In this document: positions 2,650 through 34,915 of the stretch, in pieces
Position numbering within the stretch: position 1 is the first letter of the stretch
How the letters are laid out: the number at the start of each line of letters is the position of its first letter
From: Enterobacteria phage HK225
Sequence record: NC_019717.1
Reading direction: 5' to 3' (one strand)
Length of the DNA: 45,366 nucleotides
Translations under genes and position numbers: made by a program
Notes under the pieces: generated by a model
Seen by the model: the letters and a program-made list of their open reading frames with translations, nothing else
The model's database searches: none
Told to the model about the DNA's origin: nothing

Positions 2650-4238
2650 AAATACCATCTTTAGTGGGACCTGACGGGAAAACATCCCTTCGGGAATACG
2701 CGGGATATCATGGTGGTGGTGGCGGGTTTGGTGGGCAGCTGCGGGGCTGGAATCCGCCGAGTGAAAGTGCAGATGCCGCACTCCTTCCCAACTATTCTCG
2801 TGGAAATGCCCGCGCTGACGATCTGGTGCGAAATAATGGCTATGCAGCAAACGCCGTGCAGCTCCACCAGGACCACATCGTCGGGTCATTTTTCAGACTC
2901 AGTTATCGACCGAGCTGGCGCTATCTTGGCATCAATGAGGAGGATTCACGCGCATTTTCTCGGGATGTGGAAGCCGCCTGGAATGAGTATGCCGAAGATG
3001 ACTTCTGCGGGATTGATGCCGAACGCAAGCGAACGTTTACGATGATGATTCGTGAAGGTGTAGCAATGCATGCGTTTAACGGTGAATTATGCATGCAGGC
3101 GACATGGGACAGCGATTCAACGCGTCTTTTCCGTACTCAGTTCAAAATGGTTAGTCCGAAGCGCGTCAGTAATCCAAGCAACATCGGTGATACCCGGAAC
3201 TGTCGCGCCGGGGTAAAAATCAATAATAGTGGTGCTGCGCTGGGATATTACGTCAGCGATGACGGTTATCCTGGTTGGATGGCGCAGAACTGGACCTACA
3301 TACCTCGCGAGCTCCCCGGAGGGCGCCCCTCTTTTATCCATGTCTTCGAACCGATAGAGGACGGACAGACCCGTGGAGCCAATGCGTTTTACAGCGTTAT
3401 GGAGCAGATGAAAATGCTCGATACCCTGCAAAACACCCAGCTCCAGAGTGCGATAGTGAAGGCCATGTATGCTGCCACCATCGAGAGTGAGCTGGATACG
3501 CAGACGGCGATGGATTTCATTCTCGGCGCGGATAATAAAGAGCAGCAGAGCAAACTGACGGGCTGGCTCGGTGAAATGGCGTCCTATTACTCAGCTGCGC
3601 CGGTTCGCCTGGGTGGGGCAAGGGTTCCACACCTGTTGCCGGGTGATTCTCTCAACCTTCAGTCGGCGCAGGATACCGATAACGGCTACTCGACTTTTGA
3701 ACAGTCACTGCTGCGCTATATTGCCGCTGGGCTGGGTGTATCGTATGAGCAGCTTTCGCGAAATTATTCTCAGATGAGTTACTCGACTGCGCGCGCAAGC
3801 GCTAACGAGTCATGGGCGTACTTCATGGGCCGTCGCAAGTTTGTGGCATCCCGACAGGCCTGTCAGATGTTTCTTTGCTGGCTGGAAGAGGCAATTGTCC
3901 GCCGCGTGGTCACACTTCCTTCAAAAGCCAGATTCAGCTTTCAGGAAGCGAGAACAGCCTGGGGAAATGCCAACTGGATCGGCTCAGGCCGCATGGCTAT
4001 TGACGGGCTGAAAGAGGTACAGGAAGCCGTCATGCTCATCGAGGCTGGTCTCAGTACGTATGAGAAAGAATGCGCCAAACGCGGTGATGATTATCAGGAG
4101 ATTTTTGCCCAGCAGGTCCGGGAAACAATGGAGCGTCGTGCTGCGGGTCTGAAACCACCGGCATGGGCCGCTGCCGCTTTTGAGGCTGGACTGAAAAAAT
4201 CAAACGAGGAGGAGCAAGATGGCGCACGAGCTGCGTAA
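2646..4238 (+). CDS. B: portal protein (lambda gpB-like)
   Basis: 530-aa ORF in portal position, translationally coupled to W; lambda B-like by recollection. Confidence 0.9.
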
Positions 4239-23019: not shown

Positions 23020-24213
23020 ATGATCACCGACACAAAGCTCAGGAAGGCGCTCGGCAAGAAAAGAGATGATATCGAGATTATTTCTGATTCGCACGGGCTC
23101 AACGCCAGAATCAGCCAGGCCGGAAAAATATCATTTTTCTATCGGTATCGCTGGGCCGGTAAAGCGGTAAAACTCAATGTTGGTGATTATCCTGCAATGA
23201 GTATCACCCAGGCAAGAGAACGTCGCCAACAATTCAGAAACTGGTTAACTGAGGGACTGGATCCGCGAGAGCAGGTGAAGCTGGATAAGCAGACCCGACA
23301 GGAAGCGATGTCCGTTGCCGAAGCGTTCAATTACTGGATTGAAAGGCACTGTATCGCTAACGGGCTAGTTAAAGTCGATTACTATCGCCAGGTGTTTGAG
23401 AAACATATCGCCGAACCGATGAAGAATGTCAAAGTCGATAACACAGCGAAAATGCACTGGATCAACGTCTTCGATTCTATAGAAAGCAGGGTGATGGCTC
23501 ATTACATGCTTTCGCTGTGCAAACGGGCGTTTAGGTTCTGCGTTAACAGAAGTGTGATCGCCTCAAACCCACTCGAGGGATTACTGCCATCTGATGTCGG
23601 GCAAAAGCCTAAAAAGAGAACTCGCAGGATGGACGATGACGATCTGCGCAAAATCTATCAGTGGTTGAAAAGCCATATGTCGATAGAGTCCGTTTTCCTG
23701 GTGAAATTTATTATGCTTACCGGATGCCGTACGGCTGAGATTCGACTTAGTGAGAGATCATGGTTTCGATTGGATGATAATGAGTGGGTCGTGCCTGCGG
23801 GCAGTTATAAAACTCGGGTACATATTAGAAGGGGACTCTCAGACGCCGCCGTTAACCTGGTCAGAAATCACCTCAAGAAAATAAACACCAATCACCTGGT
23901 GACTTCACAACGTAAAATTGATGGCGGGATCAAAGATTCGCCCGTTCATTCACCTGTGGCATCCAATTACGCCCGTTCTATTTGGAATGGAACAGGTATG
24001 GCAGAGTGGTCGCTTCATGATATGAGGCGGACGATAGCCACAAATCTCTCTGAGTTAGGTTGCCCGCCGCACGTAATTGAAAAGCTGCTCGGGCATCAGA
24101 TGGTGGGGGTTATGGCGCATTACAACCTTCATGACTATATCGATGATCAGAAACACTGGCTCCGCGTTTGGCAGAGCCATCTTGAAGAGATCATCGGAGA
24201 GCCCTTCAGTTAA
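23020..24213 (+). CDS. int: tyrosine integrase (P4-like family)
   Basis: track ORF starts at GTG 22963; [11 protein letters not shown]-terminus is typical of P4-type integrases; catalytic-region motifs HDMRRT and LLGH...HY; start could also be ATG 23005. Confidence 0.85.
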
Positions 24214-24452
24214 TTTATCTTCTTTTTATCCTCCCACTCTTTGATTGACTCAGAGCGCCAGCGGTTAGGGTTGCCGGGCCAGTCAGGGGGTGGGAACGGG
24301 CATACGAAGCCCCGAGGCATTGTGTCTGCACTTTGCCATGACCAAAGGGTTTTGCGTGAAATTTTGTAGCGACTGGTCAGGTCTGACGTTACCAAAATAT
24401 CATCCATAGCTCTCTCCAGTTGCCCGTTCGGGCCATTCAAAATCTTTTTCAA
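24210..24452 (-). CDS. xis: excisionase-like / AlpA-type small DNA-binding protein
   Basis: 80-aa ORF convergent with int and overlapping its stop; FPPP...W motif recalled from excisionases paired with P4-family integrases. Confidence 0.5.
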
Positions 24453-24691
24453 CCAACCTGCCCGGGCAGGGAGCGGAGACGGCGCATGCCGGTCATCGCT
24501 GTGGCCACGTAGCTCGCCTTTCGGTTCACCACCTCCACCCAGACTTTCACGCCTTCAACCTTCACCGTATAAGTCTCTTTCATCTTGCTTCGCCCATAGT
24601 CGCCATATGTTTGCAAGTGAGCTGCCAGCGCGATGTCGCATGCTTGGCGAGCTAAAGGTGATTGCTTACTTCCTCGATTGATCAGTCGCAT
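24449..24691 (-). CDS. hypothetical protein
   Basis: 80-aa ORF with AGGAGA SD 4 nt upstream; coupled to xis. Confidence 0.45.
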   Translation of the reverse strand: MRLINRGSKQSPLARQACDIALAAHLQTYGDYGRSKMKETYTVKVEGVKVWVEVVNRKASYVATAMTGMRRLRSLPGQVG

Positions 24692-24729
24692 ATAATCTCC
24701 TTGAGGGAGGGTTACCCCTCCCGGTCTCG

Positions 24730-25842
24730 TCAGGCCACGTATTCCGGTTTCATATCCGCCAGGGTGATGCTGAATTGATCGTGCAGTTCATCGCCTAAGT
24801 GACGCTTTGAAGATGCAAGCATGCGCTCGGCTTCAGCGAACCGTTCGGATGCATGCGGCTCGTCGGGCTGGGGCAGGGATTTAATAGCCTCCTCAACCTT
24901 GTTGCGTGCATCCACTAGGTAATAACGCTTTACGGCTTTGTTTTTCAGCTCGGTGAATAGTGCGGATCCCAGCGTAGCTTTCGCCGTTTCAATGTCGGCA
25001 CGCAGCGATTTGGCGCTATCCACGTCCTGAGCAGATTCGATGCGTTCGCGGAAATCATCGGCAAGAGAGTCGACATTTACCGACGATTCCTGTGCGCTTT
25101 GCGTGGTTGTGACGGTGTCACCTGAGATATCAGCCAGGCTAACGCGTTGCGGCGTTGGGTTGATCTCTTTTTCTGTGCGCTGTTCAATCTCATCAGGGGT
25201 GTACACACCAAGAACAACTGCAGGGCAATACAGGCGCGCCCAGTATTTGAGTGCCAGATAAGCGATCTGCTGTTTCGGGTTTGATACCCAAAGTGGAGAA
25301 TTACGTGTGATTACGCTGGAGAGGAAAACAGGCTCTCCCCAGGTGATATCACTTTCACCGCGAATAACGGCACCTACCCGTACCGACAGTCCTTGTTCAT
25401 CAGCACTTTCCCAACCGCGTACCATTTCTTTCTTGTCGTACGTCCCGCCACCTTTCGCAGGCTTTTTAACGGTTATCTCGCGGCTGCTGGCACATTTCGA
25501 CCAGTCGCCCTCGTACTCATAGTGAAAGCGGCCAACGATGGCGTTTGAGCTGGAGATCACCGCATTAACCAGTTGCGCTTCGTATCCCAGGACACCGTTA
25601 ACCAGGTGCGTCTTTTGCGCCACGGCGTAAGGGTTCATACCCCACTGCATCGCCTGCATGATGATGGCCATGCAGTCTGCCGGATTGCCGCGGAGGTGCT
25701 CAGGCACCGTTACGGCTGCCTGTGCCATCAACCCGGCGACAGACTGAAGCTGGGTTAAAGCCTGCACGTTGAAAATGGCATTGCTGGCTGAGATCGTGTT
25801 TGGAGTCTGCTGTTCAGCGGTTACGATATTCGTGTTTTCCAT
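24730..25842 (-). CDS. recT: RecT-family single-strand annealing protein
   Basis: track ORF has three consecutive Met; the third (25842) has the best SD spacing; core GNPADCMAIIMQAMQWGMNPY resembles RecT. Confidence 0.8.
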   Translation of the reverse strand: MENTNIVTAEQQTPNTISASNAIFNVQALTQLQSVAGLMAQAAVTVPEHLRGNPADCMAIIMQAMQWGMNPYAVAQKTHLVNGVLGYEAQLVNAVISSSNAIVGRFHYEYEGDWSKCASSREITVKKPAKGGGTYDKKEMVRGWESADEQGLSVRVGAVIRGESDITWGEPVFLSSVITRNSPLWVSNPKQQIAYLALKYWARLYCPAVVLGVYTPDEIEQRTEKEINPTPQRVSLADISGDTVTTTQSAQESSVNVDSLADDFRERIESAQDVDSAKSLRADIETAKATLGSALFTELKNKAVKRYYLVDARNKVEEAIKSLPQPDEPHASERFAEAERMLASSKRHLGDELHDQFSITLADMKPEYVA

Positions 25843-25853
25843 CATCATTCCCC

Positions 25854-28800
25854 TTATGCCTGAGTACGCAGCGCTTCAAGGCGGCGCAGGTCGAAGTCGT
25901 TCAGTTCGTCGGTGTAGTCAGCAGTGATTGGCGCTGGCCATTCACCTGTGTCGAATCCGGTTGCGATATTGCGCATCGCTTTGCGGTACTCGAGCATACC
26001 CAGCTCCAGTAGTTCAGCGGATGCCTCGATGATGGCGATCCAGTGGTAGTTCTCGTCTTTGTTGACGAAAATCCAGAAGAACTGATCCAGCGCTGCGGTT
26101 TCGCAGTACATAGCCGCGCTCAGGTGATAATCACGTTCAATAATTTCCCGGTGTAGCCTGGCGCGCAGGCTTTCCTGCTTAACATTCCACATGCTGATGG
26201 TTTTCAGGTCAGCACCGATACGCACGCCGTCTAGGTCGATCTCAAGGTCAGGGCGCACACGAACTTCCAGTCCCGTCTCCTCGTCAAAGCCAAAGTAGCT
26301 CACCTCAACGGCGCGGCTCGGGTGGGTTAGCAGCATGCCTGCGGTCGGGTGCGAGAGCAGTGCTGACTGAATTGCCTGCGCGGTGGCAAGTTGCTGGTGG
26401 GTAACCAGCACTTTCCCTTCCGGGTTGTTGCGCCACGCATCGAGCAGCTCGTCGGCGAACACTGCATCTGGTTTGACTGCCTTCACGGCCTGAATCAGAT
26501 CGGCCTTCGTGCCAGAGACTTTCAGCGGTTGCAGCTTCTGAGCTTCCTGCGCGACCAGGTCAGGATTGATAATCGCAAGTTGTTCGAGTAGTGCGTCGCG
26601 GCTGCCGCTGGTTTTAATCTGCGCTGGCAGGGTGGCGTTGTACTCTTTGATGCACGCCTTCATTGCTGTTGCTGTCTTCTTCTGATCTGCATCGATACGT
26701 TGGAATTCAGCTGGCAGCGCCATATAGTTCTGCGCCGTTTCATCCAGGCTAGCGCCCAGCGGCACCAGCGCTGGCAGGGTGGCGTTGTATTCATCCAGCA
26801 AAGCTTTGATATCGTCTGCGCTCAGTTGCGCTGGCAGGCTGGCGTTGTACTCATCAATAAACGCGCGGATCGTTGCCGTGGTGGTAAATGCACCTTCCGG
26901 AATTACGGGTTCAACGCTAAATTCTTCATCGAGCTGTTCTGGCTGCAACGCCAGCGCATGTACCAGGTTTCCCATGTCCAGCACTGAGGAGCGCTCTTTG
27001 ACGATGGTTTTCTCAACGTGGCGCGCATTGAAGTACATCAGCGAAACGCGCGCATCTTTTACCTGGGTGGAACTGATGCCGTTGGCAGCGTGGTAAACCT
27101 CGTTCGGCAGACCTTCATAGCGCCCAGGCTCGAAGTAATCGGGGTAAAAAACAGCTGGTTCGTCAGATTGCGCTTCTGGCTCGGTTTGTGCTGCAACTGG
27201 TTCGGTTTGGCTTACAGAATCGCTATTTTTGGCGACAGAATCCGTATTCTGGTTTACATCGTCCTTCTGGCTGGTATCTGACTCTTCACCAGACTCCAGA
27301 CTGCTTTCGCCTGGCTGTACTTCATCACCAACATTTTTTTCATCACTGACAGTTTCTTGAACCTGCACATTGCTGGTGGTTTCCGTAGCCTGTTTCGTGC
27401 CATGAGTTGCTGAGTTCTGCAGTAAAGCCGTAACGTCGAATATTCCGTTGCCGACATTTTTAACCAGTTCTTGTTCGACTTTCTGCGGTTGTGCTGCCGC
27501 TTCCTCTGCGCGGCGGCGTGCTCCTTCTTCACGCACGCGTTGCAGGTTCTCTTCGTGAGTGCAGAAGGATTTGCGCGGAGACTCCTTACCTTCAGGTTGG
27601 GGAATTTCCTGTGCTGCGGGTTCAGCCTCATGCAACGGCAATAACTCGACCGCGGAATTGAACGCGGCTGTCATGGTCTGGTTAACAAATTCCAGGTGAG
27701 CGACAGGAGTTAAATGAATATTTTCCGGTGCGATACGTACCAGGTTAAAAATAGCCGTGCGGTTAACACCCAGAACGCCTGGCTGATTGCGCAGGATGTT
27801 GCTCCATGATTTCCATGGTTCTTCTTTTTTGGTCACGATTTCTTTAGCGCGACGAAGAATGCTGCCCGGGATCTCGAAGTGGTTGAAGTCCATAGGCAGA
27901 AGGGCACACGCAATCTCTAAATCGAGAGTGTCCAGTGTGTGGTGTGCGTCAGGTCCACGGTCAGTGACGTAACCGCCGTCGGCATTAGTGCCGGAATCAG
28001 TACGCTGCACACTACTGATGCGATTACCGGCGGCCCATTCGCGAACGAGGATACCGCGGTCGATGTGATCTGTAGCGAACCACAATTTCAAAAACTGGAT
28101 TAAGGTTGCGAGTTCAGGGATTTTTCCATCGACAGGGAAGACTTTCTTAACGGCATTCACGACTTTATGAATATCGTGCTCAATGGCTTTTTTGAATGCT
28201 TCCACATTCTCAGCTGCCAGCAGCAGGTTCTGGACGTACGCGTCATCGGTGTCCATCTCAAGGCGGACAATCTCATTTTTCTGCCCTGCGTCGATGTGAT
28301 AGAGATATTCACCATCACCGATGAACTGAGCCAGTACGCGCTGGCGGAATGGCAGGGTGGCAACAACGATCAGGTTCGGTTGCTGTGTCTGCTGGGATTG
28401 CTCTTCGGTATCGACTTCACCATCAACGACGCCACCTTCTGCCCGGCCGTTCTCGTCGGTCTGGATACCGTCCTCAACAGTGAGATCTTGACCCGTTGTA
28501 ACGTCAGCAGCGTTGCTGGTTTCAGTTTTGAGCAACTGCAACTTACCACTGCGCCAGTCTTCTACCAGTTGATTGCGGTCACCGGCATCGGTGTTCACCC
28601 AGTCAGACATGAATGCAGCGATCAATCTTGGTTCGTGCTCTTCGTCTGGTGTGAAAATGTCCTTAACCGCCCGAATCATTTTCCACTCAGCATTCAGGCT
28701 GAGTTTGGCGGTCGCGGGCACATCGTTCCTTGCCACAAGCAGGCTATGGAGATATGTATTGCCTTCATCCAGTGACATTTCGCTGGCAGCCAACTGCTGC

Positions 28801-29243
28801 TCTTTAGTGACGTGGGTTTGGTATTTATCGTTCATCAGATGGACGGCAAAGCGGACCGCTGGAGTACGGTTTTCAACCGGGACAATTTCGGACGCAGTCG
28901 CATCTTCAACGATTACGGTCGGAGTAGGTGTGTAGGGGGCGTCAACGGAACCAGTAGACACACCAGCGGCTTTTGGCAGCCAGGTGCGCCCATCGTCCTG
29001 AAGCTCGTAGCGATCACACCAGGTAAAATCAACTTCACCTTCTTTCGGCAGGCCGTCGACAACTGGGAAATCAGTGCGAATCGGTTTGGCGTAGTCCTTA
29101 CCCCGACCTGTTTCGATACCTGCATCTTCCAGCGCAACATCCAGCATCAGATTGGCGCGAGCCTCGGTTTTAGCAGTGAACCAGACCACTGCATCTTGCT
29201 TTCCGGATTTCTGAGTGGCTTTAACCACATTAAAGAATTCCAT
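25854..29243 (-). CDS. recE: RecE-like exonuclease VIII with long N-terminal extension
   Basis: 1129-aa ORF with GAGGA SD, directly upstream of recT; acidic low-complexity middle; C-terminal region consistent with a RecE-type nuclease domain; internal triplicated EYNATLPA module. Confidence 0.7.
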   Translation of the reverse strand: MEFFNVVKATQKSGKQDAVVWFTAKTEARANLMLDVALEDAGIETGRGKDYAKPIRTDFPVVDGLPKEGEVDFTWCDRYELQDDGRTWLPKAAGVSTGSVDAPYTPTPTVIVEDATASEIVPVENRTPAVRFAVHLMNDKYQTHVTKEQQLAASEMSLDEGNTYLHSLLVARNDVPATAKLSLNAEWKMIRAVKDIFTPDEEHEPRLIAAFMSDWVNTDAGDRNQLVEDWRSGKLQLLKTETSNAADVTTGQDLTVEDGIQTDENGRAEGGVVDGEVDTEEQSQQTQQPNLIVVATLPFRQRVLAQFIGDGEYLYHIDAGQKNEIVRLEMDTDDAYVQNLLLAAENVEAFKKAIEHDIHKVVNAVKKVFPVDGKIPELATLIQFLKLWFATDHIDRGILVREWAAGNRISSVQRTDSGTNADGGYVTDRGPDAHHTLDTLDLEIACALLPMDFNHFEIPGSILRRAKEIVTKKEEPWKSWSNILRNQPGVLGVNRTAIFNLVRIAPENIHLTPVAHLEFVNQTMTAAFNSAVELLPLHEAEPAAQEIPQPEGKESPRKSFCTHEENLQRVREEGARRRAEEAAAQPQKVEQELVKNVGNGIFDVTALLQNSATHGTKQATETTSNVQVQETVSDEKNVGDEVQPGESSLESGEESDTSQKDDVNQNTDSVAKNSDSVSQTEPVAAQTEPEAQSDEPAVFYPDYFEPGRYEGLPNEVYHAANGISSTQVKDARVSLMYFNARHVEKTIVKERSSVLDMGNLVHALALQPEQLDEEFSVEPVIPEGAFTTTATIRAFIDEYNASLPAQLSADDIKALLDEYNATLPALVPLGASLDETAQNYMALPAEFQRIDADQKKTATAMKACIKEYNATLPAQIKTSGSRDALLEQLAIINPDLVAQEAQKLQPLKVSGTKADLIQAVKAVKPDAVFADELLDAWRNNPEGKVLVTHQQLATAQAIQSALLSHPTAGMLLTHPSRAVEVSYFGFDEETGLEVRVRPDLEIDLDGVRIGADLKTISMWNVKQESLRARLHREIIERDYHLSAAMYCETAALDQFFWIFVNKDENYHWIAIIEASAELLELGMLEYRKAMRNIATGFDTGEWPAPITADYTDELNDFDLRRLEALRTQA
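26621..26852 (-). repeat. three copies of a 25-bp repeat inside recE
   Basis: + strand GCGCTGGCAGG(G/C)TGGCGTTGTA(C/T)TC at 26621, 26768 and 26828. Confidence 0.85.
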
Positions 29244-29358
29244 GTGAGATCCTCATTTTTGGGTGTTAGAATCCCCGGACCATTGATAGCGCCCATTGGG
29301 TTAACTTTGGTTTTAATGTTGTTTCCGGTGTAACTTTGGTCGGTGAGGCCGGACATGG

Positions 29359-29385
29359 CGGGCCCACTTCGGTGGGCTTTCGCTT
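29359..29385 (+). terminator. hairpin at the 3' end of ORF 29384..29671 (terminator-like on + strand)
   Basis: GCCCAC-ttcg-GTGGGC followed by TTTCGCTT. Confidence 0.3.
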
Positions 29386-29671
29386 AACTGACGGCTACGA
29401 TCGCCTCATTCATAAAATCTTGCTTGTATGTACGGTAGGTTCCCCAGCCGGCGTAATCGCTATCGCTGATTTTGAGTACCAGCAAGCTGATCTCCTCAAT
29501 GGCGCAGTGCGGGCAATCAAACTTGCCAAGCACATAGCCACCGTCGAGAATGACTGTTGTTTCACCGTTTGTAGTTGAGTGAATAACGCCTGATACTTTC
29601 TTCTCGCAGTTGAATGCAGCCACTTCTTTATTCACTGCTTTCAGGTTCATTTCGATTTTTACGATTTCCAT
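29384..29671 (-). CDS. hypothetical protein
   Basis: 95-aa ORF with GGAG SD 7 nt upstream; CPHC motif. Confidence 0.45.
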   Translation of the reverse strand: MEIVKIEMNLKAVNKEVAAFNCEKKVSGVIHSTTNGETTVILDGGYVLGKFDCPHCAIEEISLLVLKISDSDYAGWGTYRTYKQDFMNEAIVAVS

Positions 29672-29756
29672 AAAATCTCCAGTTGTTAAATTAAGGGTGT
29701 AAGAAGCCGCGCCAAATTAATGGCGAATTTTTCATTTCATATTTCAGGACTGCTAT

Positions 29757-29915
29757 TTAACTTTCGTGCGCCATCTGGTCGTATTCAGCGCATTGCTTAG
29801 AGCAATATTCTTTTTCTTTCTGTGCCAGTTGCGAACCGTTGAGATAGAGCAAGGTGCTCTTTACTTCTGCGCCTTCTTCAACAGGCTTGTGGCAATAACC
29901 ACATTCTTTTTTCAT
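29757..29915 (-). CDS. small zinc-ribbon protein (not in ORF track, 52 aa)
   Basis: hand-translated MKKECGYCHKPVEEG...CSKQCAEYDQMAHES; AAGGA SD; two CxxC pairs. Confidence 0.35.
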   Translation of the reverse strand: MKKECGYCHKPVEEGAEVKSTLLYLNGSQLAQKEKEYCSKQCAEYDQMAHES

Positions 29916-29948
29916 CACCTGTCCTTAAAGTGTTTTGGCAACTCTCCG

Positions 29949-30155
29949 TTAATGGCTGAGGCCATTCCCCAGACCGTTCAGATAAACTTCAACCAGCAAA
30001 TCCCTGGTGTAAGTCATCTCAACGCCGCGATGCAGATACAAACGACCACGAGCATTAGCTGATGCCGTCCAGGTTGAATCCTTGTGTTTGACGAGCATCC
30101 CCGGCTGAACTGCGCCGCGGTTTACTGTCTGTGTACCGTAGTGCTGGTTTACCAT
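29949..30155 (-). CDS. hypothetical protein
   Basis: 68-aa ORF with AAGAGGAA SD. Confidence 0.45.
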   Translation of the reverse strand: MVNQHYGTQTVNRGAVQPGMLVKHKDSTWTASANARGRLYLHRGVEMTYTRDLLVEVYLNGLGNGLSH

Positions 30156-30314
30156 GATTTCCTCTTGGCCTTATCGCGGCGAACGGAACGGTTAATACAA
30201 GACTTCAACGCATTTATTCAGTGTTTCAATGGGCGGTGGATGGCCGCCGATTGTCATAACTAAGCCGCCTCGGTGAAGCGACTGAGGTATGAAAAAACCC
30301 GCCGTGGCGGGTCT

Positions 30315-30988: not shown

Positions 30989-31004
30989 ACGTACTCTCCA
31001 CTTA

Positions 31005-31021
31005 GTTACCCGCTGATGCGG
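31005..31021 (-). repeat. intercistronic hairpin element GTTACCCGCTGATGCGG, copy 2
   Basis: identical 17-mer 222 bp from copy 1. Confidence 0.8.
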
Positions 31022-31045
31022 GAGAAATGCTTTATCTATCAGCTT

Positions 31046-31258
31046 CTACAACTCATCACGAATCTGTGAGAGTGTGCTGATCGCCTGGTAATGACCGCGA
31101 CGCTGCTCTTCTGTTTTGAACGCACGCATATCGTCTTTTATCGATGCGATTGCCTTATTCAGAACTTCCACTTGCGCTTCTTTAATCGCCTGTTTGCGTG
31201 GCTTCTGACGCTTCTTAGGAAGGTCTCTTAAACACGCCGGAATGTATGTCTGAGTCAT
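31046..31258 (-). CDS. hypothetical basic protein, first gene of the leftward early operon (N position)
   Basis: 70-aa ORF with AAGAGGA SD; Lys/Arg-rich N-terminal third. Confidence 0.45.
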   Translation of the reverse strand: MTQTYIPACLRDLPKKRQKPRKQAIKEAQVEVLNKAIASIKDDMRAFKTEEQRRGHYQAISTLSQIRDEL

Positions 31259-31562
31259 AAAAAATCCTCTTGTGATTCAGCCCAGCCCACTCAACTTCGA
31301 ATGGACTGGAATAAATCTGTTTGCGCTTCGCACCTCTCATCCTGCCAGTGTTGCCCGTTCTCACGCCGTTATCGCTCTCGCGCGGGGATACTCTCTCACC
31401 GACCGGATCGCACCCGGTGATACAGCACGTTTTCGTGTAGGGGTCTTAACAGGTCATTGACGCTGTAAATCTGCATGTTGTTAAAAAGCAGGCGACTTAC
31501 TGTCCGCCGCTGGCTAACTTCGCTCAGCTGTCGATGTTTCGTTTCGATGGGATAATTAAACA

Positions 31563-31645
31563 TCATGTGGATTTATAGGTCAACACCTTGTGGATTTATT
31601 TTGTTGATTTAATCGTTTTTTGTTGATTTTTATGTTGATTTATTT
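31563..31645. promoter_or_regulatory. OL-like operator/promoter region with five direct 9-bp repeats
   Basis: ATGTGGATT / TTGT(G/T)GATT at about 31565, 31588, 31601, 31620 and 31632; same motif as in the cI-cro intergenic region. Confidence 0.55.
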
Positions 31646-31692
31646 TTTGGTGGCATAAGTGATATGCTGCAAAAAACATCAGGAGGTGGCTA

Positions 31693-31898
31693 TGGAACGT
31701 GATGAACTTGCAGATGACCGGATGGCCTTCATGGCTGGAGAGGTTGGGTGTGTGGTGTTCGAACTGATTTACAACGGGATTGAGATCAACAAAGACAACA
31801 TTGTGGGATTTCTGGAAGGGAAGCGTAAAGCCGTCGGGAACGTGATCCACAAGGGGGTGCTACGGGATGCGGCTGAGATGGTACGGAAGGGCAAATAA
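31693..31898 (+). CDS. hypothetical protein transcribed rightward from the OL region
   Basis: ATG at 31693 preceded by AGGAGG (track ORF starts 31659); 68 aa; ends at a bidirectional terminator. Confidence 0.45.
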
Positions 31899-31929
31899 AA
31901 ACCCGGCGCGGTGGCCGGGTTTATTTATT
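31897..31929. terminator. bidirectional intrinsic terminator
   Basis: AAAA-ACCCGGC-gcggtg-GCCGGGT-TTATTTATT between convergent genes. Confidence 0.7.
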
Positions 31930-32575
31930 GCTTAGGAGCTTGTTGTGATGACGATTGGTTAGTTGGAGCGCTCGTTAATGGTTGCTGTGTCGGTACCTGT
32001 ATTATAATTGGAGCCGGGCTGGTTACTGATGGTGACTTGTCATTGCCGGAGATAATCCAACTTGAGGCTAACATCACGCCAGACAGAATCACAGTAACTA
32101 AAGTCAAGCCAACGGCCATCGCCCACTGAGTCGTTGTAAGTCCCGTTTTCAAACCGCCGATTTCACCTTTAATTTCAGCAATACCTCTCTCAATAGAAGA
32201 AAATTGCTGAGTATAATAGGTTTTAAAGTCAGCTGATTCGCGACGCATTTCCGCAGCAATAGACTCTACCTCTGATTTGTTTTGTGAAAGCTTTGCGTCA
32301 AGTTCTTCTCTGGACATTCCGCTCACGCTTACCTCCAGGGTATCACTCTTCATCGCTACATCTTCCTTACTTGGGCGCAAACCCGTTTCGTCCATGGCGT
32401 ATGAAACTCTATTTGATACCTTAGCATCAATACCAATACTTTGGTACTGAGATGGATCCCCATAAGGAGAAACGGTTGTCGCTGCTAGGGTTGCACTAAC
32501 TATAATACTTGGAAGAACTGATGATGTTGTTCCTGAGGTAGGTTGAACTGAAGAAACTGGCTTCAGTCTTTCCAT
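31925..32575 (-). CDS. hypothetical membrane protein (S/T-rich N-terminus, coiled-coil, one TM, P/S/Q-rich C-tail)
   Basis: 216-aa ORF; hydrophobic AMAVGLTLVTVILSGVMLASSWII; AT-rich; start overlaps the upstream ORF by 13 nt. Confidence 0.5.
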   Translation of the reverse strand: MERLKPVSSVQPTSGTTSSVLPSIIVSATLAATTVSPYGDPSQYQSIGIDAKVSNRVSYAMDETGLRPSKEDVAMKSDTLEVSVSGMSREELDAKLSQNKSEVESIAAEMRRESADFKTYYTQQFSSIERGIAEIKGEIGGLKTGLTTTQWAMAVGLTLVTVILSGVMLASSWIISGNDKSPSVTSPAPIIIQVPTQQPLTSAPTNQSSSQQAPKQ

Positions 32576-32829
32576 AGCCCATTATCCCTGAGAGCTACCT
32601 GTAATGATTTTACTAATGCAACAGCTTGATCCGGGCTCATTGAGACTGACATGTTAGGGGTCAACTCAACTTTTACTTGGAAGCTATTCTTTCCTTGCTC
32701 ATCAGACTGCATGTGATGCTCAAATTCATGGCGGTAAAAAGTAATGATTGTTTCAGCACGATCAGGCGTAATAAGAACTGATGTGGCGGTCATGTGCTGA
32801 GGTATGATTTTAATAGTGTTATCTGACAT
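32563..32829 (-). CDS. hypothetical protein (88 aa from the SD-preceded ATG)
   Basis: track ORF 32563..32970; only the ATG at 32829 has a good SD (AAGGA); alternative starts at 32865 or 32871. Confidence 0.4.
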   Translation of the reverse strand: MSDNTIKIIPQHMTATSVLITPDRAETIITFYRHEFEHHMQSDEQGKNSFQVKVELTPNMSVSMSPDQAVALVKSLQVALRDNGLWKD

Positions 32830-33024
32830 AAGTATCCTTTTTGTTTCCTTAGTATTTTTTTGCATTGACATCAGAAATAGCGAATCCACAAGAGTATGAG
32901 TAAAGCTAATCAGTTTAGTGATACGGTGACTATTAAAGTGGTAAACCACATCAAAGCTCGCAGAGTGCATACCAGGCTGTCACACATGACAAAGTAACGA
33001 GGATGCCTGATCTCATAGCGCTCA

Positions 33025-33177
33025 AAGAGACATGCCGATAATGGCATTAACCACGCATGACGCCATAAACACGCCGCCAACGATGAAGCTGGCTTGGTTC
33101 TTCCTGGTAGCGCCAAGAGTCAACAGAACCACTGAAAGGGCAAAAAAAGGTATCGCGATTATGCTGAACGTGTTCAT
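33025..33177 (-). CDS. small hydrophobic peptide (51 aa, two predicted TM), not in ORF track
   Basis: hand-translated MNTFSIIAIPFFALSVVLLTLGATRKNQASFIVGGVFMASCVVNAIIGMSL; GAGG SD 5 nt upstream; immediately downstream of cI. Confidence 0.35.
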
Positions 33178-33281
33178 GTTGACCTCAACTTATTTCGATT
33201 CTCCATCACCCTTAATCCGCCGCCCCATGTGTTTGTTGTGATCCGTTGCTGGCCTTAACCAAACGTCTCTTCAGGCCACCG

Positions 33282-34001
33282 CTACAGCAATACCGAGTAC
33301 CAGAAGAGGCGGCCGATTATCTCAACATCATCAATGTCAGCTTCTTCATCAGGGTAGGCCTCATTGTTGTAGCTGCGGATAATTAGCTTTCCGCCTGGCT
33401 TACGATACAGCTGTTTAATGCGCTTGAGTTGACCATTCCCGCCATCTGTCTGACCAATGGCATACAGTTTCCCATCAACTATGCGTTTGTTGTTCGTATC
33501 GACGGCTACAGTCGTACCATCCGGTATCACAGGTTCCATGCTGTCGCCAGTAGCAGGGAAACACAGGATGCCAGACCCATCTGTGTTAGCTCCAACGCGG
33601 CGGAGGGTTGCCTTTGAGAACCTGAGCTTAAAACCATTGTGATCTTCGCTGTGTACGCGTCCATCGCCACACGCAAATTCAATATCCTTAAGAAATGGCA
33701 CTTCAACCTCATCAACAGGAAGCGGGGTGTCTTTATCCCATGCATCAACAACTCCCCACTCAGACTCTGGCGGGATGTTGCTCTCCAGATCCTTCTTTGG
33801 AGAACCCTCTCCATTTAATAAGCAGTCAAGAGAATAACCGAATTTTTCAGATATTTGTTGCGCCGCCTCACGACTTAACGCGTCTCTTTTTATCCAGTTG
33901 TTGACGGTCTGTGGGCTAGTCGACAAAGCCTCAGCCAAATCCCGCTGCTTCAAGCCTTCCCTTGCCAGTAAAAATTTAATTCTTTCAGAAATGCTACTCA
34001 T
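33282..34001 (-). CDS. cI: CI-like prophage repressor (HTH plus S24 LexA-like peptidase)
   Basis: ATG at 34001 after GGAGGG; N-terminal HTH (LKQRDLAEALSTSPQTVNNW); C-terminal GDSM serine motif and conserved Lys. Confidence 0.85.
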   Translation of the reverse strand: MSSISERIKFLLAREGLKQRDLAEALSTSPQTVNNWIKRDALSREAAQQISEKFGYSLDCLLNGEGSPKKDLESNIPPESEWGVVDAWDKDTPLPVDEVEVPFLKDIEFACGDGRVHSEDHNGFKLRFSKATLRRVGANTDGSGILCFPATGDSMEPVIPDGTTVAVDTNNKRIVDGKLYAIGQTDGGNGQLKRIKQLYRKPGGKLIIRSYNNEAYPDEEADIDDVEIIGRLFWYSVLL

Positions 34002-34029
34002 AAAACCCTCCGCTCCATGCATGGTAAAC

Positions 34030-34105
34030 AACATGTGGATTTTTTCCATCACCATAATGTTGATTTAATCCACATCATGAATTAACATGGTGTTGATTAC
34101 ACATG
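34030..34105. promoter_or_regulatory. OR-like operator region between cI and cro
   Basis: 19-bp near-palindrome ATGTTGATTTAATCCACAT at 34057-34075 plus half-sites ATGTGGATT (34033) and TGTTGATTA (34091). Confidence 0.6.
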
Positions 34106-34118
34106 AGCGGAGCAAAAC

Positions 34119-34340
34119 ATGATCAACAAAGAATCCAACGCAAGCACCCCGCTTGAGAAAGCCATTAATGCAGTGGGCGGCTCTCAAAAGGTGCTTGCTG
34201 AAAAGGTCGGCGTAACTCCACAGGCCATCAATATGCTTAAAAAGCGAGGTGGCAGCCTTCCAGTAACAAAAATGCGTAAGTACGAAGAAGTGACGGGGCT
34301 TCCTCGCGAAGTTCTATATCCAGGTATCTTTGCCGCCTAA
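34119..34340 (+). CDS. cro: Cro-like HTH regulator
   Basis: 73-aa ORF divergent from cI; HTH GGSQKVLAEKVGVTPQAINMLKK. Confidence 0.7.
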   Translation: MINKESNASTPLEKAINAVGGSQKVLAEKVGVTPQAINMLKKRGGSLPVTKMRKYEEVTGLPREVLYPGIFAA

Positions 34341-34369
34341 CGGCGGCCCTAACCACGAAAGGGAAAGCA

Positions 34370-34915
34370 ATGCATTCACTTGCGTATCAACAAGGTAACA
34401 AATTTTCGCCAACGGCGATGATTTACCAGAATCGCCGGGAGCCTGATTCCACGGCGTTAAACATCGATGGGATCCGCGCAGCCGTTCGCGCCTGGGCAGC
34501 TGATTGCCGAAGCCGTGAATTTGTCGCCGCGCTGATCGTGGAAGAGTGGCGGGCGTCCGGCGGAACCGGTCTGGATATCCCGACTGACTCGCACCGCCAG
34601 ATGCAGAAAGTGTTTCGATGGATTGATGGCGATACCGAATACGCCGCCAACAACATTCGCCAGCTGGCCCCGGCAATCATGTCGGTCCTGCCGCTGGAGT
34701 ACCGAAACCGTCTGGCGCCGCAGAACGACACGATGTCGCTGATCGCCTCTGCGATGAAAGAGTGTGCCGAGGCTAAACAGGCCGTGCTGCTGGACGCTCC
34801 AGAGCATCAGAAGCTCAAAGAGGTAAGCGAGGGTATAGCGTCGCTGTTCCGCCTCATGCCGGAGCAGGTAGGACCGCTGATGACGATGGTTACATCGATG
34901 CTGGGGGTTATATGA
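34370..34915 (+). CDS. CII-like regulator (YdaT-like)
   Basis: 181-aa ORF in the cII position; resemblance to YdaT-family proteins is recollection only. Confidence 0.4.
   Translation: MHSLAYQQGNKFSPTAMIYQNRREPDSTALNIDGIRAAVRAWAADCRSREFVAALIVEEWRASGGTGLDIPTDSHRQMQKVFRWIDGDTEYAANNIRQLAPAIMSVLPLEYRNRLAPQNDTMSLIASAMKECAEAKQAVLLDAPEHQKLKEVSEGIASLFRLMPEQVGPLMTMVTSMLGVI

Follow-up and report, generated by a model that had tools for sequence, protein, structure and literature searches.

Here we examined the DNA that lies downstream of the gene for the cI repressor in Enterobacteria phage HK225 (sequence record NC_019717.1); throughout, "the window" refers to the whole stretch analysed, 45,366 nucleotides (nt) in length. 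An initial annotation had noted three open reading frames (ORFs) on the cI strand, between cI and a bidirectional terminator, and had proposed them as an undescribed cassette for exclusion or abortive infection. The three ORFs are present on the minus strand and encode, in order of transcription, a protein of 51 amino acids (aa), here p51, followed by gp49 and gp48, which correspond to the products of genes 49 and 48 of phage HK97. The features of the locus, in window coordinates, are as follows.

31692-31898, plus strand: convergent 68-aa ORF of family phrog_3975, with a GGAGG ribosome-binding site, between OL/pL and the terminator
31899-31922: bidirectional intrinsic terminator with a 9-bp stem, 6 G-C pairs and T-runs on both strands
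31925-32575, minus strand: gp48, an ORF of 216 aa with 100% protein identity to HK97 Gp48; phrog_5820
32563-32829, minus strand: gp49, an ORF of 88 aa, HK97 Gp49; phrog_26809
32830-33021, minus strand: AT-rich spacer of 192 nt (39.6% GC) between the p51 gene and gp49
33022-33177, minus strand: p51, an ORF of 51 aa with a GAGG ribosome-binding site, two transmembrane (TM) helices and a basic loop, TRKNQ
33282-33992, minus strand: cI repressor with helix-turn-helix (HTH) and S24 peptidase domains, assigned by Pfam and by its match to phi80; context, not cargo

Four copies of a 23-nt operator-like repeat, at OL (31552-31597) and OR (34020-34099), flank the cassette on both sides, which places it inside the immunity region, where lambda has rexAB. 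The earlier assignment of the three ORFs to a rexAB-equivalent slot on the cI strand is borne out by these operators and by the lack of a convincing promoter or terminator between cI and the cassette. The slot between cI and N is the classic home of rexAB and, lately, of bstA, and it is transcribed together with the repressor, from one of the most active promoters of a prophage. A promoter scan found no sigma-70-like promoter on the minus strand from cI to the terminator, and the sole terminator-like match between cI and the cassette was a weak 5-pair hairpin within the 3' end of the p51 gene. Because no sigma-70-like promoter was found on this strand between cI and gp49, read-through from the cI promoter, pRM, appears likelier than transcription from a promoter of the cassette's own. 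It would be the simplest reading here, as it is for rexAB and as has been proposed for bstA (PMC8585504), and pRM is presumably the source of transcription for the cassette. The strong terminator at 31899-31922 presumably closes both the cI-p51-gp49-gp48 transcript and that of the convergent 68-aa ORF. An attenuator or small RNA element in the spacers was ruled out, as neither spacer folds better than its shuffled controls (z = +1.81 for the RNA fold of 32830-33021), and an Rfam scan of positions 31000-34500 returned a chance match only.

The AT-richness that had been remarked on by eye was confirmed by computation and is real but moderate. The cassette's GC content is 44.4%; the mean for the window is 52.0% (standard deviation 3.3%, equal-sized windows), so that the cassette falls at the 1.2 percentile. 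GC at third codon positions (GC3) is 0.355 for gp48 and 0.393 for gp49; p51 differs, with a GC3 of 0.596, and does not share the AT bias of the pair. Set against the definition of a moron by Juhala et al. (in PMC3594210), the cassette has the deviating base composition and the terminator; the minus-strand scan gave no sigma-70-like promoter from cI to gp49.

The DNA of the cassette is not new. Window positions 31890-33279 correspond to HK97 positions 26877-28263 with 99.6% identity over 1,390 bp, in the same order behind cI and with the same terminator. In HK97 this stretch comprises gene 48 (216 aa), gene 49 (88 aa) and an unannotated spacer that contains the 51-aa ORF. The gp48 proteins are identical and the gp49 proteins differ by a single residue. 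The HK97 proteins carry the accessions NP_037733 (Gp48) and NP_037734 (Gp49) and belong to PHROGs 5820 and 26809, with no function assigned in either record. The description of the cassette as undescribed therefore stands for its function and falls for its sequence; the DNA was deposited long ago as HK97 genes 48 and 49.

Of the three proteins, gp48 has the most elaborate architecture. Residues 1-85 contain 28% serine/threonine, are variable and are disordered. The conserved helix 'SREELDAKLSQNKSEVESIAAEMRRE' follows and runs on into a coiled coil (89-136), a G-rich hinge and a TM helix. Hydropathy analysis gave one strong TM segment near residues 152-170 (Kyte-Doolittle score 2.25), and AlphaFold placed helices at 89-136 and 148-176, leaving the remainder disordered, at a predicted local distance difference test (pLDDT) score of 47. 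The C-terminal tail, which we take to be periplasmic, consists to 62% of P, S, Q and T and is P/Q-rich, with a PIIIQVP motif. By the same methods gp49 has no TM segment and is modelled as a three-stranded beta-meander with a C-terminal helix. For p51, hydropathy gave two peaks of TM type (Kyte-Doolittle scores 2.36 and 2.12). The initial descriptions of p51 as a two-TM peptide, of gp49 as soluble, and of gp48 as having an S/T-rich N-terminus, a coiled coil, one TM helix and a tail agree with these results.

To find relatives of gp48 we used a family profile in HMMER, which returned 203 clusters at E <= 1e-3, of which 105 reached E <= 1e-10; the proteins are about 90-300 aa long. An earlier word-indexed search had found only 11 clusters. 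The family alignment has five regions, namely a variable N-terminus, the conserved helix, the coiled coil, a QW plus TM helix segment, and the tail. Across the family the helix reads SR-E-L-A-L--NKAEV--A--MR-EMA-(W/F)R, in which E91 and E102 never vary and A94, L96, N99 and K100 are nearly invariant. The coiled coil varies in length and frequently contains IDG-type repeats. Many members have a P/Q-rich tail of the form QP(I/V)(I/V)IQ(V/I)P and some stop just past the TM helix, so the gp48 core does not depend on having a tail.

The gp49 frame is open upstream as far as 32970, and the start with support is the one that yields 88 aa. Starts giving 135 aa or 100 aa were rejected because homologues with 63-66% identity are 88 aa long and because a 1-nt insertion in the upstream A-run of one related locus (L013) breaks the longer frames only. 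The stop of gp49 overlaps the start of gp48 by 13 nt (ATGGAAAGACTGA), and overlaps of 4-13 nt occur in most relatives, including those of Klebsiella and of HK542. Close relatives of gp49 form 5 clusters, and a structure search with its model gave no significant fold match. Nevertheless a small ORF, of 87-158 aa, precedes nearly every gp48-like gene. Most of these partners can be aligned, sharing a C-terminal helix and the pattern 'I-(T/S)-F-x-R-H', whose I and F are invariant. Local profile searches link the 96-104-aa partner classes to one another at E values of 1e-5 to 1e-9. It is likely but not proven that gp49 is homologous to the other partners; comparison of gp49 with the other classes by hhalign gave weak results (P = 0.004 and 0.42).

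We noted that the N-terminal segment of the gp48-like protein switches class along with the partner, in the following combinations.

gp49-type partner: (V/I)xSATLAAxxV..PY in the gp48-like N-terminus
97-101-aa type partner: VDAFxMPAYHEK in the gp48-like N-terminus
98-aa type partner: WGASQxxTTSARLAKSIRSN in the gp48-like N-terminus
158-aa type partner: AKRFKVSLVSGSDFSCSF in the gp48-like N-terminus

This match fits either contact between the partner and the gp48 tail in which the motif lies or a specificity role common to both. A conserved gp48 core joined to a partner and an N-terminus that change together follows the pattern of a sensor and an effector, as one would expect if the pair were a conflict system.

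The arrangement of repressor, partner, gp48-like gene and terminator recurs with many different repressors, and in most of the loci examined the pair comes immediately after a prophage repressor. Upstream of the pair we found the HK97 cI, phi80-like cI genes (in the window and in loci L012 and L020), HTH-only repressors, some of them 130-139 aa long (L013, L021, L006 of Klebsiella and L036 of Sodalis), and S24 repressors of Yersinia and Buttiauxella (L003, L004, L034 and L035). The lambda-immunity phages HK542 and HK244 have the same kind of pair in the slot, and in 26 further viral loci the ORFs upstream of the pair matched HTH_3 in 16 of 22 cases and Peptidase_S24 in 13 of 22. In other phages the slot holds rexAB or bstA (PMC8585504). 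It is a swap site for cargo, in which 40A, hicAB, gp49/gp48-type pairs, rexAB and bstA are found; of these, rexAB, bstA and hicAB are cargo for defence or addiction.

We infer a defence function for the pair from this position and from the architecture of its proteins. Tentatively, we favour the view that gp49 and gp48 are a sensor and a membrane effector, co-transcribed with the repressor and acting in exclusion or abortive infection of other phages. On this model transcription from the cI promoter would run on into the module in the lysogen. The one TM helix of gp48, near its C-terminus, would insert into the membrane and leave the N-terminus in the cytoplasm, and the conserved helix of gp48 would oligomerise, probably as a trimeric coiled coil. 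Binding of gp49 to the variable N-terminal segment of gp48 would keep gp48 inactive, or gp49 would itself be the sensor. A superinfecting phage would then perturb the gp49-gp48 complex, and the anchored gp48 would disturb the inner membrane, or injection or another early step, so that the infection fails. The p51 protein would ride on the same transcript and need not share the mechanism. Since the P/Q tail is dispensable in part of the family, we lean towards action at the cytoplasmic face or in the membrane and away from a purely periplasmic block of injection. It is possible, though we hold this more loosely, that the pair is the founding example of a widespread family of prophage defence systems, comprising about 200 clusters, mostly in lambdoid prophages of Enterobacterales and almost always in the rexAB slot, in which a trimeric tail-anchored coiled coil would be the effector and a fast-evolving partner with its matching tail the phage sensor, and which would be mechanistically unlike RexAB and the catalogued systems.

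Several observations weigh against the proposal of a defence module. Scans of the three proteins against Pfam and NCBIfam gave no meaningful match, and against PADLOC-DB 2.0 no significant one, the only hit being to PDC-S52 (E = 0.0095) and falling on the artificial 135-aa extension of gp49. The earlier statement that none of the three is recognisable as a known family is thus upheld. In favour of the proposal, the searches uncovered no homology to functions of the lytic cycle or of housekeeping, and of the observations that the initial annotation had named as refuting it, none that could be checked by computation was made. In PHROGs the matches were only to families of unknown function, and the accessible papers report neither an exclusion phenotype nor a function for HK97 genes 48 and 49. 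One TM helix and a coiled coil give little ground to propose a pore, and the gp49 model has low confidence (pLDDT 62). When profiles of the other partner classes were searched in a set of 3,222 ORFs, gp49-type proteins came out as the next-best matches, and these were marginal (E of about 0.01-0.2). The match between partner and N-terminus could reflect mere co-inheritance of adjacent DNA with no physical contact. Finally, in Xenorhabdus-type loci (L030, L031, L043 and L048) the gp48-like gene is not beside a repressor. At these four loci we noted short gp48-like genes near Arc/RHH regulators and near antirepressor-like, tail or lysis genes, and a small ORF of 106-165 aa still precedes the gp48-like gene.

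The alternative that survives best, which we nevertheless consider unlikely, is lysogenic conversion, with an effect on host physiology. Here gp48 would be a tail-anchored scaffold like DUF1640 or CCDC90 proteins that alters the inner membrane or envelope (for example in stress tolerance or in the organisation of membrane proteins), with gp49 as its cofactor and p51 as a regulator of host type. This would agree with the lack of a match in the defence database and with the occurrence of p51 relatives as ordinary chromosomal genes. It would also agree with the similarity to PF07798 (CCDC90-like), a family described as mitochondrial membrane scaffolds, which was detected in 23 of 73 gp48 relatives over the stalk and TM helix; these matches are weak and mostly below threshold (best 2e-8), and only one relative (P0131) passes the gathering score, with 34.7 bits against 33.5. 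The gp48 of the window itself has no PF07798 match at E < 0.1, and the similarity is driven by the coiled coil. Moreover, the tight association of the module is with the repressor loci of prophages, not with chromosomal contexts, and its partner and N-terminus diversify fast around a conserved core, which is more typical of conflict systems.

The resemblance to DUF1640 proteins such as MCUR1 and CCDC90B lies in a coiled-coil stalk followed by a C-terminal TM anchor (helix 89-136 and TM helix 148-176 in gp48). In addition, the strongly conserved polar motif L-x-Q-N-K-A-E-V at the start of the stalk in the gp48 family resembles the beta-layer motif IENKAD, and is not of the ATK form. Hartmann et al. 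described beta-layer motifs of the types IENKAD and [aliphatic]-A-T-K-[polar]-[DE] in trimeric coiled coils, and in DUF1640 proteins noted them 'prominently at the beginning of the C-terminal stalk' (PMC4786415). In contrast to those proteins, gp48 has a disordered N-terminus in place of a folded head domain, and many members of its family have the P/Q-rich tail. The similarity may be compositional; we read it as hinting at a tail-anchored gp48 trimer with a DUF1640-like architecture, with membership of that family not established.

We consider it rather improbable that the pair is an addiction module of the toxin-antitoxin (TA) kind that stabilises the prophage, with gp48 as a membrane-active toxin, gp49 as its antidote and no dedicated sensing of phage. 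The layout of two small genes, the smaller one first, with overlapping stop and start, is that of type II TA operons, a genuine TA pair, hicAB, fills the same slot in HK106 and mEp234, and a membrane-anchored product without its partner could be toxic. On the other hand, a DNA-binding antitoxin fold is not recognisable in gp49, nor a known toxin fold in gp48, so that the pair lacks both marks of a type II system, and the module presumably lies in the cI transcript and not behind an autoregulated promoter of its own. The distinction from a defence module is also blurred, as many TA modules act as abortive-infection systems. Very unlikely, in our view, is a part in the phage's own regulation, by which the products, from the inner membrane, would modulate for example CII/CIII-FtsH, the stability of CI or induction: the location in the immunity region, the expected co-expression with cI and a membrane anchor like those of the FtsH/HflKC regulators of lambda CII are in its favour, but phages of the same immunity exchange the slot for unrelated cargo (HK97 versus HK106 and mEp234, which share the cI end; phi80 versus the window), and the function in the slot is therefore dispensable for the regulatory circuit.

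Among known systems, lambda RexA/RexB is close in layout. Both sets of genes lie between cI and OL/pL in the orientation of cI, both consist of a soluble and a membrane protein, and both are presumably transcribed from pRM. The proteins themselves are different, since RexB has four TM segments and RexA about 279 aa, whereas the cassette encodes a tail-anchored coiled coil with a single TM segment (gp48) and the 88-aa, beta-rich gp49. None of the cassette proteins matched RexA or RexB in PADLOC, Pfam or NCBIfam, and they have no sequence or fold similarity to them. The cassette is repressor-linked prophage cargo, a candidate functional analogue of rexAB built from unrelated proteins. BstA of BTP1 and its relatives, and hicAB, likewise lie directly 3' of a prophage repressor and presumably use the same promoter; their proteins are unrelated to those of the cassette, BstA being a single large cytoplasmic protein and HicAB an RNase toxin with an HTH antitoxin. 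HK97 gp15 (an exclusion moron derived from YebO), SieA of P22 and Sie2009 of Tuc2009 are small inner-membrane proteins expressed from a prophage, as the membrane proteins of the cassette would be. HK97 lysogens have been studied for the exclusion mediated by gp15 (PMC3594210), which has no homology to the cassette proteins and is encoded in the tail operon under a promoter of its own. SieA, a protein with three TM helices (PMC10883804), and Sie2009 have no such homology either.

The module recurs behind many unrelated repressors and yet is unnamed in annotations and in defence databases. With HK97, a tractable model phage carries it, and the hypothesis is testable with existing strains. If the pair does act in defence, a tail-anchored coiled coil would be a new type of effector for prophage immunity and might yield a first function for bacterial DUF1640-like proteins. 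If it does not, the locus still illustrates cleanly how cargo modules are exchanged, with a defined recombination junction where cI has its 3' end.

The initial annotation had treated all three genes as one cassette. A single three-gene unit was rejected, since p51 differs in GC3, has chromosomal relatives and is missing from diverged pairs; the conserved unit is the gp49-gp48 pair, from which p51 departs in composition, ancestry and distribution. Its conservation argues that p51 is a real gene. Its homologues fall into 35 clusters; in about three quarters of these the length is exactly 51 aa, and identities are mostly 67-98%, with invariant motifs MNTFSIIAIPFF and VGGV as well as invariant N44 and G48. 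The family is an unnamed one of small membrane proteins, whose members are conserved chromosomal genes in Atlantibacter, Lelliottia, Klebsiella and further genera: among the chromosomal loci (L067-L073) are genes beside pmrD in Atlantibacter, between RIO1 and yceI in Lelliottia and right after dinI in Klebsiella michiganensis. Within prophages p51 accompanies only the E. coli/HK97 version of the cassette and is absent from the diverged pairs of the Klebsiella and Yersinia loci. It looks like the gene of a small host membrane protein that was captured separately, and in this apparent derivation from a chromosomal family it resembles HK97 gp15 (PMC3594210).

The surroundings of the cassette have several sources. 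The cI gene, OL and OR are about 93% identical to phi80 at the DNA level; the slot in phi80 holds gene 40A, which is unrelated to gp48 and gp49. Gene 40A (positions 2937-3803 of locus L002) gave an NCBIfam match at 1.2e-5, below the cut-off, to 'LAPAL motif putative phage structural protein'. The early-left region of the window (24000-30162, with integrase, recombination genes of RecE/RecT type and kil) is 93.7% identical to mEp237. By these similarities the prophage is a three-way mosaic of an mEp237-like recombination region, a phi80-type immunity region and HK97 cargo. HK97 itself differs from the window in that there the pair does not lie in a phi80-type immunity region and the convergent 68-aa ORF is lacking. 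The right-hand junction of the cassette falls within the final 25 bp of the HK97 cI gene. HK106 (L074, 28113-33188) and mEp234 share only 76 bp with the cassette, at the 3' end of cI (window 33204-33279), and their slot contains hicAB and a 141-aa ORF. This suggests that cargo is exchanged through a recombination junction where cI ends.

An identical cassette was present in 53 of 5,426 complete E. coli genomes, with one copy in each, always chromosomal and annotated as 'hypothetical protein'; PGAP had annotated p51 in one genome. Isolated phages with a gp49/gp48-type pair are HK97, Lambdavirus PDP110P1, HK542, HK244 and two Klebsiella phages.

Some smaller features of the locus deserve mention. 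The cI ORF as called mechanically, from 34055 (257 aa, 33282-34055), overlaps the OR repeats at 34020-34042; the initial call needs correction, as the true start is probably near 33992, which would give a protein of 236 aa like that of phi80. The spacer at 32830-33021 holds a perfect palindrome, TGTCAtgtgTGACA, at 32978-32991. It could be a candidate site for protein binding; because the whole cassette is nearly invariant, its conservation is uninformative. The position of the 68-aa ORF is kept in many related loci, where it is filled by the phrog_3975 family or by DUF2767 (PF10965); this ORF is a neighbour whose relation to the cassette is uncertain. Just upstream of it and adjoining OL, a direct repeat (TTTTGTTGATTTA-like, about 13-16 nt) occurs three times at 31596-31642, a stretch whose first part falls inside the segment common with phi80; the repeats may be a regulatory site.

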